From: Promethearchaeia archaeon
GTDB lineage: Archaea > Asgardarchaeota > Lokiarchaeia > Sigyniarchaeales > SOKP01
Direction: 5' to 3'
DNA: 64,000 nt
Assembly: GCA_029856125.1 (NCBI GenBank)
Contig: JAHQWJ010000014.1
Location: 1 to 64,000 of the forward strand
The translations under genes were made by a program, and so were the position numbers. Every line of letters starts with the position of its first letter. Within the stretch, counting starts at the first letter, position 1. Shown here in pieces: positions 23,646 through 25,217 of the stretch. Below the pieces are notes generated by a model. That model did not search any database. It was given only the letters and a program-made list of their open reading frames with translations, and was not told the DNA's origin.

Positions 23646-23726
23646 GCCAGCGTATCCGAGTAGTTAAGGAGGCGGCCTGCAGAGCCGTTGCTTTCAGCAT
23701 CGTGGGTGCAAATCCCACCGCTGGCT
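23646..23726 (+). tRNA. tRNA-Cys(GCA) with long variable arm
   Basis: Acceptor GCCAGCG/CGCTGGC, U73, D-stem TCC/GGA, anticodon stem GCGGC/GCCGT with loop CT-GCA-GA, T-stem GTGGG/CCCAC; 13-nt variable region; CCA not encoded; directly upstream of cysS. Confidence 0.92.
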
Positions 23727-23771
23727 CTTAAACCATCTTCTAAATTAATTAATTTGGGTGTATCAACAATC

Positions 23772-25217
23772 ATGAAAGTATACAACAGTCTAACATTCCA
23801 AAAGGAAGAATTTGTTCCTATAGAGTCCGGAAAAATCAAGATGTATGTTTGTGGAGTTACAGTTTATGGGAGTCCACATCTAGGTCATGCAAAGTCTGCC
23901 GTCGCTTTTGATTTAATTCATAGGTTTTTAAAATATAAAGGATACGAGGTGAACATAGTAAAAAATTACACTGATATAGACGATAAAATTATCAAGAGCT
24001 CGCAAGAAAACAATGAAGATTATAGAGTACTAAGTGAACGCCATATCGGTGAATACGAAGAAATCATGAAATTGTTGAATGTTGAAAAAGACACTCAAAA
24101 TCCCCGAGCAACAGAAGTAATTGATCTTATTATCAAATTCGCTCAAGAATTAATTTCTAAAGGTCACGCTTATGAACGAAATGGATCGGTATATTTTTCA
24201 GTTAAGTCCTTTCCCAAATATACTACAATACTTCAAAGAATAAAGGAGCACGATACTGAAAGCGAAGAAGAGGATTACATGGTCGATCAAGACACGGCTT
24301 TCGGCGAAGATAAGCTCGATAAACGCGATTTTGCTTTATGGAAAAAAATGAAAGAAGGTGAGCCGTTTTGGGAAAGTCCTTGGGGTAAGGGTCGTCCTGG
24401 ATGGCACATCGAATGTTCAGTTATGATCTTACATTTCCTAGGAGAAACGATTGATATCCATGGCGGAGGGCAGGATCTTAAATTTCCTCATCATAGAAAC
24501 GAGATTGCCCAATCGGAATCTTATTCAGGTAAAGTATTTGCTAAATATTTTTTACATAATGGTTATGTTAACGTAAACAACGAAAAAATGTCAAAAAGCC
24601 TTAATAATTTTTTTACCGTTGCTGACATTATTAAAAATTACGATCCGATGGTTATCCGCTGGTATCTGATATCGAGTCATTACAGAAGTTCAAATAATTA
24701 CACTCCGGACAGTATGGAACCAGCAAAAAAGACTTACAATAGATTAATTAATACGATCAAGAAAGTTAACGATGCCGAGTTTAGCGAAGAACCGTCTAAC
24801 CAGCTTGATATTTTGACGAATAAAATTATAGAATCTAAACATAAAATTATTGAAGCCATGGACGACGATTTCGACACTCCCGTAGCTTTGGCTGAACTTC
24901 TAACGCTATTTAGAGAAATAAACAAAGCCTTATTACAAGATGGGTTAAAAATTAATCAATCATTCAAAGACCAATTTTTAAATTATATTGAGTTTATTGA
25001 AGAAATTTTCGGGATATTTCCTTTTTTAAAATCTAAAACGCTACCTTTTTCAAATGTTGACGCTGATGAGAAAGATATCCTCATAAAAAATCTTATTAAT
25101 TTAATTATTGAAACGAGAGCTAAGATAAGAGAAAAGAAGCTTTATGATATAAGCGACTTAATTCGAGAACGGTTAAAAGAATTGGGGCTTGATATCGAAG
25201 ATAAAAAAGTAAAATAA
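23772..25217 (+). CDS. cysS: Cysteinyl-tRNA synthetase
   Basis: MYVCGVTVY, HLGH, DFALWK, GRPGWHIECS, DIHGGGQDLKFPHH, KMSKS; ATG at 23772 (the track start lies inside the tRNA). Confidence 0.96.
   Translation: MKVYNSLTFQKEEFVPIESGKIKMYVCGVTVYGSPHLGHAKSAVAFDLIHRFLKYKGYEVNIVKNYTDIDDKIIKSSQENNEDYRVLSERHIGEYEEIMKLLNVEKDTQNPRATEVIDLIIKFAQELISKGHAYERNGSVYFSVKSFPKYTTILQRIKEHDTESEEEDYMVDQDTAFGEDKLDKRDFALWKKMKEGEPFWESPWGKGRPGWHIECSVMILHFLGETIDIHGGGQDLKFPHHRNEIAQSESYSGKVFAKYFLHNGYVNVNNEKMSKSLNNFFTVADIIKNYDPMVIRWYLISSHYRSSNNYTPDSMEPAKKTYNRLINTIKKVNDAEFSEEPSNQLDILTNKIIESKHKIIEAMDDDFDTPVALAELLTLFREINKALLQDGLKINQSFKDQFLNYIEFIEEIFGIFPFLKSKTLPFSNVDADEKDILIKNLINLIIETRAKIREKKLYDISDLIRERLKELGLDIEDKKVK

Follow-up and report, generated by a model that had tools for sequence, protein, structure and literature searches.

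How does a tRNA whose identity elements are those of cysteine come to carry the long, base-paired variable arm of a class II tRNA, and which synthetase would charge it? Each tRNA isotype is taken to belong, throughout a domain of life, to either class I or class II. Canonical archaeal tRNA-Cys(GCA) belongs to class I and is charged by CysRS, and also by SepRS where that enzyme is present; a long arm is what SerRS and archaeal LeuRS chiefly rely on to select their substrates. The locus considered here lies in a 64,000-nt stretch of DNA from a Promethearchaeia archaeon (hereafter, the window). Its initial annotation described a tRNA-Cys with a class II-sized arm and an unusual elbow, and went on to propose an origin and a function for it. 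The anatomy in that account is right; the origin and the probable function are wrong.

ARAGORN reported a single tRNA in the 64-kb window, tRNA-Cys(gca) at 23646-23727, and the Rfam tRNA family RF00005 matched 23646-23726 over its full model (1-71) with 55.3 bits, above the gathering score of 29 (E = 3.5e-9), which places the gene among cloverleaf tRNAs. Together with a covariance model, these searches define an 81-nt tRNA-Cys(GCA) gene on the plus strand (23646-23726) that has a 7/5 acceptor/T configuration and does not encode CCA. Read from the sequence, its 7-bp acceptor stem (23646-23652 paired with 23719-23725) is followed by U8, A9, a UCC/GGA D-stem with G13 opposite A22, the D-loop AGUAGUUA and G26. 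By comparison with orthologues, A-G (A at 23662, G at 23663) replaces G18-G19 in this loop. The anticodon stem opens with G27oU43 and its loop is CUGCAGA, containing the GCA anticodon (23679-23681) and then G37. The variable region, UGCUUUCAGCAUC, occupies 13 nt (23689-23701) and comprises a 4-bp stem (UGCU at 23689-23692, AGCA at 23696-23699), a UUC loop (23693-23695) and a UC tail (23700-23701) in which C48 is retained. Beyond a 5-bp T-stem, the T-loop UGCAAAU (23707-23713) has G55 (23708) where U or pseudouridine is expected, and the discriminator is U73 (23726). Both of the main CysRS identity elements, the GCA anticodon and U73, are therefore present in the gene. The minimum free energy fold is a five-armed cloverleaf with a 4-bp variable stem (-32.3 kcal/mol, z = -1.9), and compensatory changes occur at 12 of 21 consensus pairs among orthologues. 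Direct reading thus confirmed every anatomical detail first listed for this tRNA, and the claim of a tRNA-Cys with a class II-sized arm and an A18/G55-type elbow was borne out by the 13-nt region, the 4-bp stem, the AG D-loop and the UGC T-loop.

This gene also appears to be the one on which the organism depends. The host genome (3.69 Mb, 32.7% G+C, 153 contigs) is 99% complete, and introns interrupt many of its tRNA genes. Scored with a covariance model of 15 orthologues, the tRNA-Cys gene reached 94.1 bits, with a tRNA-Leu as the next match at 44.8 bits, and neither BLAST nor a scan for GCA anticodon stem-loops turned up any further tRNA-like candidate in this genome. It had been asked whether this was the only tRNA-Cys; it is the single one detected by these three approaches, bearing in mind that heavily interrupted tRNA genes can evade detection. 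The unusual elbow and the extra arm might be taken as marks of a decaying or non-functional copy, but no other tRNA-Cys was detected in a 99%-complete genome, every stem is intact and covaries across relatives, and adjacency to cysS is conserved, making decay hardly credible.

The cysS gene (23772-25217, plus strand) begins 45 nt downstream of the tRNA and encodes a full-length, intact cysteine--tRNA ligase of 481 aa (TIGR00435, 485.8 bits against a cut-off of 340), which matches the E. coli CysRS structures 1LI5/1U0B with 3e-108 over residues 1-477. In most Asgard relatives, tRNA-Cys likewise lies directly upstream of cysS. Relatives of the window's CysRS come from metagenome-assembled genomes labelled Promethearchaeota or Promethearchaeia (Loki-type Asgard archaea), and the nearest non-archaeal relatives from Clostridium and Bacillus (43-45%). 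The same tRNA-Cys-to-cysS arrangement was also seen on an Undinarchaeota contig (L092:1377-1449 and 1501-2943), with a CysRS that is 44% identical. In the spacer between the two genes (23727-23771), an A/T-rich stretch, TTAATTAATTT, and a GGGTG motif lying 12 nt ahead of the start codon ATG suggest that cysS has a promoter and ribosome-binding site of its own and does not rely on read-through from the tRNA alone.

Where the arm came from is clearest from close relatives. Orthologues of the same genus form two groups, one with a near-invariant 13-nt region (its variants being GCGUC, GCAGC and UUUAGC) and one with the 5-nt loop UAUUC. The rest of the molecule is shared, as an arm-less orthologue (L022) matches the window's tRNA-Cys at every one of positions 1-44 and at about 96% of the T-arm and acceptor. 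Because arm-less orthologues of the same genus have a near-identical body, the arm is, on this comparison, an insertion of 7-9 nt into a class I tRNA-Cys. Recruitment of the tRNA from a class II body, as initially proposed, is ruled out by the same orthologues. Nor does the G13-A22 mismatch, cited at first as a resemblance to tRNA-Leu and tRNA-Ser, mark a class II ancestry: G13-A22, A9 and G27oU43 are common to arm-bearing and arm-less orthologues, so the D-arm likeness does not accompany the arm, and many (bacterial-type) tRNA-Cys are described as combining a 13-22 mismatch with A9 and G27oU43 (PMC7566577), three features that the window's tRNA shares.

The stem of the arm pairs more consistently than chance would give. 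In the window's own family, variants with 4-bp UGCU stems were UGCU-UUC-AGCA, UGCU-UUU-AGCG, UGCU-UUUC-AGCA, UGCU-AUUA-AGCA and UGCU-AUUC-AGCA, and those with other stems were UGCC-AUUA-GGCA, UGCC-AUUA-GGCG, UGGC-UUC-GCCA, UGC-GAAA-GCA and UGC-GCAA-GCA; a second family contributed UGCC-GAAA-GGUA, UGUC-GCAA-GACA and UGUC-AUCC-GACA. The insertion site is the same in every variant, and the arm is followed, with one exception, by a tail whose last nucleotide is C48. When 16 distinct variants were aligned, standard pairs occupied 62 of 62 cells, compared with 11-69% of cells in a control in which the 3' partner was slid by 1-3 columns. Two of the four arm pairs had changed on both sides, in 9 cells (CG to UA or GC; UA to CG), and the remaining two had changed to wobble pairs only. 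The loops vary freely (UUC, UUU, UUUC, AUUA, AUUC, GAAA, GCAA and AUCC, GNRA tetraloops included), the total length of the arm-bearing region stays within 12-14 nt, and the UC tail is retained. Judged from this covariation, selection visibly keeps the arm helical.

The result is an arm that looks very much like those of the class II tRNAs of the same cell. In the host genome, the variable region measures 13 nt in tRNA-Cys, 14 nt in tRNA-Leu and 15 nt in tRNA-Ser, and all share a spacer layout of U, 3-4 bp, a loop of 3-4 nt and 2-3 nt. With 13 nt and a 4-bp stem, the gene sequence falls within the structural definition of class II (a base-paired variable region of more than 10 nt), and like class II tRNAs (Leu, Ser and Sec, and bacterial Tyr) it combines a stem-loop variable region with a D-stem of three Watson-Crick pairs. 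Unlike them, it has Cys isotype, U73 rather than G73 or A73, and the body of its arm-less class I orthologues; the isotype is not class II throughout the lineage, as same-genus orthologues have a 5-nt loop. The presence of the arm also varies among close relatives in tRNA-Cys, a variation not seen for Leu or Ser. The molecule is thus a tRNA-Cys by every feature examined and a class II tRNA by structural definition only.

An inserted segment in an archaeal tRNA gene raises the question of splicing: the extra 8-9 nt could be a mini-intron, or be excised in some other way, leaving an ordinary class I tRNA-Cys as the mature product. Relatives do carry true introns in this very gene, located in the D-loop after position 15, near 9/10 and 33/34, at 37/38, and in the T-loop, and Asgard tRNA genes are rich in non-canonical introns, with insertions known in the variable region as well (bioRxiv 10.64898/2026.10.13.758758). 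The arm resembles such introns with bulge-helix-bulge (BHB) motifs in being an insertion relative to compact orthologues, in an insertion-rich gene family, with a patchy distribution (bioRxiv 10.64898/2026.10.13.758758), and its presence or absence flips among close relatives as that of an intron would. The Asgard intron census, in which tRNA-Cys is not mentioned, recorded insertions of at least 10 nt only (bioRxiv 10.64898/2026.10.13.758758), a threshold that leaves room for very relaxed or novel processing of insertions shorter than 10 nt. We applied a BHB classifier built on the published definition of Marck and Grosjean 2003, a 4-bp central helix flanked by two 3-nt bulges with the cut sites and at least one outer helix. 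The classifier found true orthologue introns at the boundaries predicted by comparison, assigning a 29-nt D-loop intron (L017) to class HBh' with a 9-bp inner helix, and 37/38 introns (L028 and L063) to class hBH with a 6-bp outer helix. By the same classifier, none of the 6-13 nt excisions in the variable region of the window's tRNA-Cys, or around it, fitted a BHB, hBH or HBh' motif, and excisions that would give back a 4-5 nt loop formed only 1-2 of the 4 central pairs. An unrestricted scan for the BHB pattern gave dozens of matches per gene and was very unspecific, so the meaningful boundaries are those fixed by comparison only.

Other properties of the arm are equally unlike those of the introns. 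The true introns are 17-37 nt long and differ in sequence between close relatives, whereas the arm is near-invariant and exon-like across lineages with CysRS identity down to 63%, and the total length of the variable region is held to 12-14 nt. On the BHB definition, 8-9 nt could not hold a central-helix strand, an inner helix and the bulge parts, and GNRA-type tetraloops and compensatory changes suit a permanent structural arm. The arm thus differs from archaeal BHB introns in motif, in length (8-9 nt, under the 10-nt census threshold) and in conservation. Given the lack of a BHB motif, the exon-like conservation and the shortness of the insert, the arm is most likely retained in the mature tRNA, and we consider its excision distinctly improbable.

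Two further arrangements were seen in interrupted orthologues. In L015, L040 and L041, and similarly in L067, tRNA-Cys is interrupted near 9/10 and spare acceptor bases, GCCAGCG (the first seven), lie just upstream; in the first three the arrangement covers some 50 nt ahead of the tRNA-Cys gene and extends into it. In L043:1341-1462, a tRNA-Cys with a canonical UUC T-loop has a T-arm insertion that in turn holds a copy of half a T-arm, with the loop of the UGC type, as though by recombination between two types of tRNA-Cys; L171 (G086) is similar.

We assessed how widely the arm occurs in a census of 151 genomes of the class, after which the arm sequences were read individually. The arm was present in 22 of 35 resolved genomes of the window's genus and in 21 of 32 of the sister genus, as well as in single genomes of two further genera and in 3 of 3 genomes of a second family; about half of the resolved species of the window's family carry it. 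None was seen among the examined genomes of the family that includes a 4.4-Mb single-contig genome (which has a 5-nt loop), or among those of other classes of the phylum. Matches of 80-91 nt in other Asgard classes proved to be tRNA-Ser or intron-bearing tRNA-Cys. The arm is therefore widespread among relatives. It had been anticipated that such an arm might turn out to be typical of the lineage and already documented; it is indeed common there, but a publication documenting it was not found.

Within this range the arm is evolutionarily labile. On a species-proxy tree of RpoA' only (80 genomes, quick search), its state changed 11 times, at least 9 of them on well-supported branches. Among 44 Asgard CysRS genes resembling that of the window, the 13-nt arm corresponds to approximately one clade and a 12-nt GAAA variant to a separate clade; the CysRS tree was dropped as a species proxy after two CysRS lineages appeared. 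Some close relatives have clearly different tRNA-Cys genes (for example, G131 compared with G105 and G117), so in some cases an apparent change of the arm may reflect replacement of the gene, or loss of different paralogues, and not gain or loss of the arm itself. The RNA polymerase genes showed features of their own. The rpoA1 genes in L232 (G032), L249 (G103), L256 (G134), L257 (G137), L263 (G071) and L278 (G118) exceed those of other relatives by 30-36 nt (2667-2673 versus 2637 nt) and contain 1-3 in-frame stop codons, a pattern that resembles short intervening sequences within a gene for a protein. In G002, G056, G146 and G135, the RNA polymerase A' gene is split by a same-frame, intein-like insert of about 1.5 kb.

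The elbow has a different history. All other tRNAs detected in the host genome have a canonical GG D-loop and UUC T-loop, so that the odd elbow is confined to tRNA-Cys. We compared the distinct orthologue sequences whose D- and T-loops are uninterrupted: a UGC T-loop occurred in 39 of 39 with AG at positions 18-19, and a UUC T-loop in 12 of 12 with GG or CG there; relatedness inflates these counts, and the covariation of 18 with 55 was without exception in this sample. The spacing of AGUAGUUA equals that of AGUGGCUA in orthologues with the canonical elbow, which indicates that the A in the D-loop corresponds to G18. Arm-less relatives, including the 4.4-Mb single-contig genome, have the A18/G55 elbow too, as do L213 and L216 from two further Asgard families of the phylum. 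On this distribution, the elbow is older and wider than the arm, and a separate trait of this tRNA-Cys lineage. G19-C56 would be kept in such an elbow, and the contact between G18 and pseudouridine 55 would give way to a purine-purine contact between A18 and G55. With G55, and hence no pseudouridine 55, alongside A18, this is a rare natural variant of a near-universal elbow contact, and we found no description of it in the literature.

Co-evolution with the adjacent CysRS had been part of the original proposal. That idea does not survive comparison. CysRS lengths are equal (478-483 aa) in arm-bearing and arm-less lineages, and this absence of a length difference led us to reject arm-CysRS co-evolution. 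The host genome has one CysRS. Most genomes of the sister genus (g18), and most of its arm-bearing ones, have another CysRS lineage that is 40-43% identical to that of the window and encoded away from the tRNA gene. The occurrence of the arm beside two CysRS lineages that are about 41% identical argues against tight co-evolution and for tolerance. Examples of the distant enzyme in g18 are G122:C61:13265-14653 and G115:C365:9785-11176; in a few members of g18 the CysRS is instead of the window's type and linked to the tRNA gene, and G077 has both lineages.

A second possibility, raised at first for serylation, is that the arm permits charging by SerRS or LeuRS, which would place serine at cysteine codons or open a serine-dependent route to Cys-tRNA. 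The size and spacer layout of the arm are indeed like those of the host tRNA-Leu and tRNA-Ser arms, and the host has one ordinary SerRS of usual length (contig C82, 22424-23674; a 428-aa open frame; TIGR00414, 484 bits). However, the gene has U73, whereas the host tRNA-Ser genes have G73 and the tRNA-Leu genes A73; an intact CysRS adjoins it; and arm-bearing and arm-less forms interchange among close relatives without apparent change in these enzymes. As the sole tRNA-Cys found, its mis-serylation would corrupt all cysteine codons. The enzymes of tRNA-dependent cysteine formation were likewise not found in the host genome, where the best profile matches reached 70.5 bits for SepRS (cut-off 380.65) and 26.3 bits for SepCysS (cut-off 365.25), so that neither half of the SepRS/SepCysS route was detected and this part of the initial proposal lacks support. 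Serylation or leucylation of this tRNA-Cys is thus disfavoured by the gene content and identity elements, and we regard it as very improbable.

SepRS nevertheless bears on a third possibility, in which some partner recognizes the arm as a functional determinant or anti-determinant: the arm might separate this tRNA from a second, SepRS-linked tRNA-Cys, block or recruit a modification enzyme, or protect against a tRNA-targeting nuclease. SepRS scored above the cut-off in 54 of 151 genomes of the class, and many SepRS-positive relatives have a second tRNA-Cys(GCA), whose elbow is the canonical GG/UUC, whose acceptor is GCCAGAG and whose variable loop is short. This second type, which is distinct from the cysS-linked type (whole loci are, for example, L179 (G019), L180 (G091), L181 (G032) and L184 (G012)), was not found in the host genome. 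In the window's genus, 22 of 22 arm-bearing genomes lack both SepRS and the second tRNA-Cys, and 11 of 11 resolved genomes with SepRS and/or the second tRNA-Cys have the short loop; the pairing of the arm, moreover, is strictly conserved across many lineages. Against these points, the genus-level pattern amounts to about one evolutionary event. SepRS changes 6 times on the RpoA' tree (80 genomes). Among 9 independent pairs with contrasting arm states, SepRS was alike in about 7.3, followed the arm in about 1.7 and ran opposite to it in 0 (p of about 0.5 by sign test), so a link between arm and SepRS is not supported. A tie between the arm and loss of SepRS or of the second tRNA-Cys, which looked perfect within the genus, was accordingly rejected on these independent contrasts. 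Arm and SepRS also occur together in four genomes (G125, G118, G039 and G041), the loop sequences vary freely, and at least 9 flips of arm state speak against an indispensable role. We consider it unlikely that the arm is read in this way. The wider proposal that the arm and A18/G55 together mark a separate cysS-linked tRNA-Cys lineage read by a partner, whether as an anti-determinant for SepRS/SepCysS, through a modification enzyme or through a nuclease of defence or attack, seems to us more doubtful still.

The explanation that we favour, with a probability of roughly two in three, is that the arm-bearing gene is a working tRNA-Cys charged by CysRS, in which the arm is kept as a structurally maintained expansion. 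The cysS-linked tRNA-Cys lineage would have gained a hairpin of 7-9 nt between U44 and the last three nucleotides of the variable loop, turning the 5-nt loop (UAUUC) into an arm of 12-14 nt with 3-4 bp and a loop of 3-4 nt, and the mature tRNA would retain it as such an expansion. CysRS would then charge the arm-bearing tRNA with cysteine by way of the GCA anticodon, U73 and the 13-22 and 15-48 core. CysRS is a class I enzyme, and enzymes of this class, GlnRS among them, are described as approaching the tRNA with the variable region toward the solvent. A solvent-facing variable region would account for tolerance of the arm, which CysRS would then not read. The arm looks like a nearly neutral or modestly stabilizing addition, not an identity switch.

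Known systems offer partial parallels. The window's tRNA resembles canonical archaeal class I tRNA-Cys(GCA) in GCA, U73, G37, G1-C72, 7/5 arms, G15-C48 and an intact CysRS adjacent to it, and departs from it in a 13-nt variable region with a 4-bp stem instead of 4-5 nt, in G55 instead of U or pseudouridine, and in A18 instead of G18. The sole published long-arm tRNA-Cys that we found is that of the bacterial selC* genes; no report of a long-arm tRNA-Cys in archaea or Asgard was found, and it goes unmentioned in papers on the coding systems of Asgard and other archaea. The selC* tRNA-Cys of anaerobic bacteria has U73, in part GCA, and a long variable arm, and is charged by CysRS and not by SerRS (PMC5389517; PMC7609411). 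These tRNAs derive from tRNA-Sec, with an 8/4 acceptor/T configuration, an A51a bulge and dedicated SelB*/CysRS* partners (PMC5389517; PMC7609411). The likeness lies in a cysteine tRNA (U73, GCA) with a long variable arm (PMC5389517). The window's gene is not of this kind, having a 7-bp acceptor stem and a 5-bp T-stem; unlike selC*, it is archaeal, with a 7/5 configuration, and an ordinary tRNA-Cys plus an insertion.

Collectively, sequence comparison makes it most likely that this tRNA-Cys is normally charged and that its arm, common in the lineage, is an expansion that is tolerated and kept as a structure. Annotation pipelines may mis-score or mis-type such genes. Were the arm and elbow to mark a lineage read by a partner after all, Asgard archaea would hold two partly insulated pools of cysteine tRNA, of which the arm-bearing one would take over when the phosphoserine route is lost. 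Here a class I isotype has acquired and retained an arm of class II size, and has lost or replaced it repeatedly, in the archaeal group nearest to eukaryotes. Near-identical tRNAs with and without the arm thus constitute a natural experiment on how synthetases avoid a look-alike arm, on the amount of additional structure that CysRS, EF-1alpha and the ribosome can accommodate, and on the possible origin of class II tRNAs.
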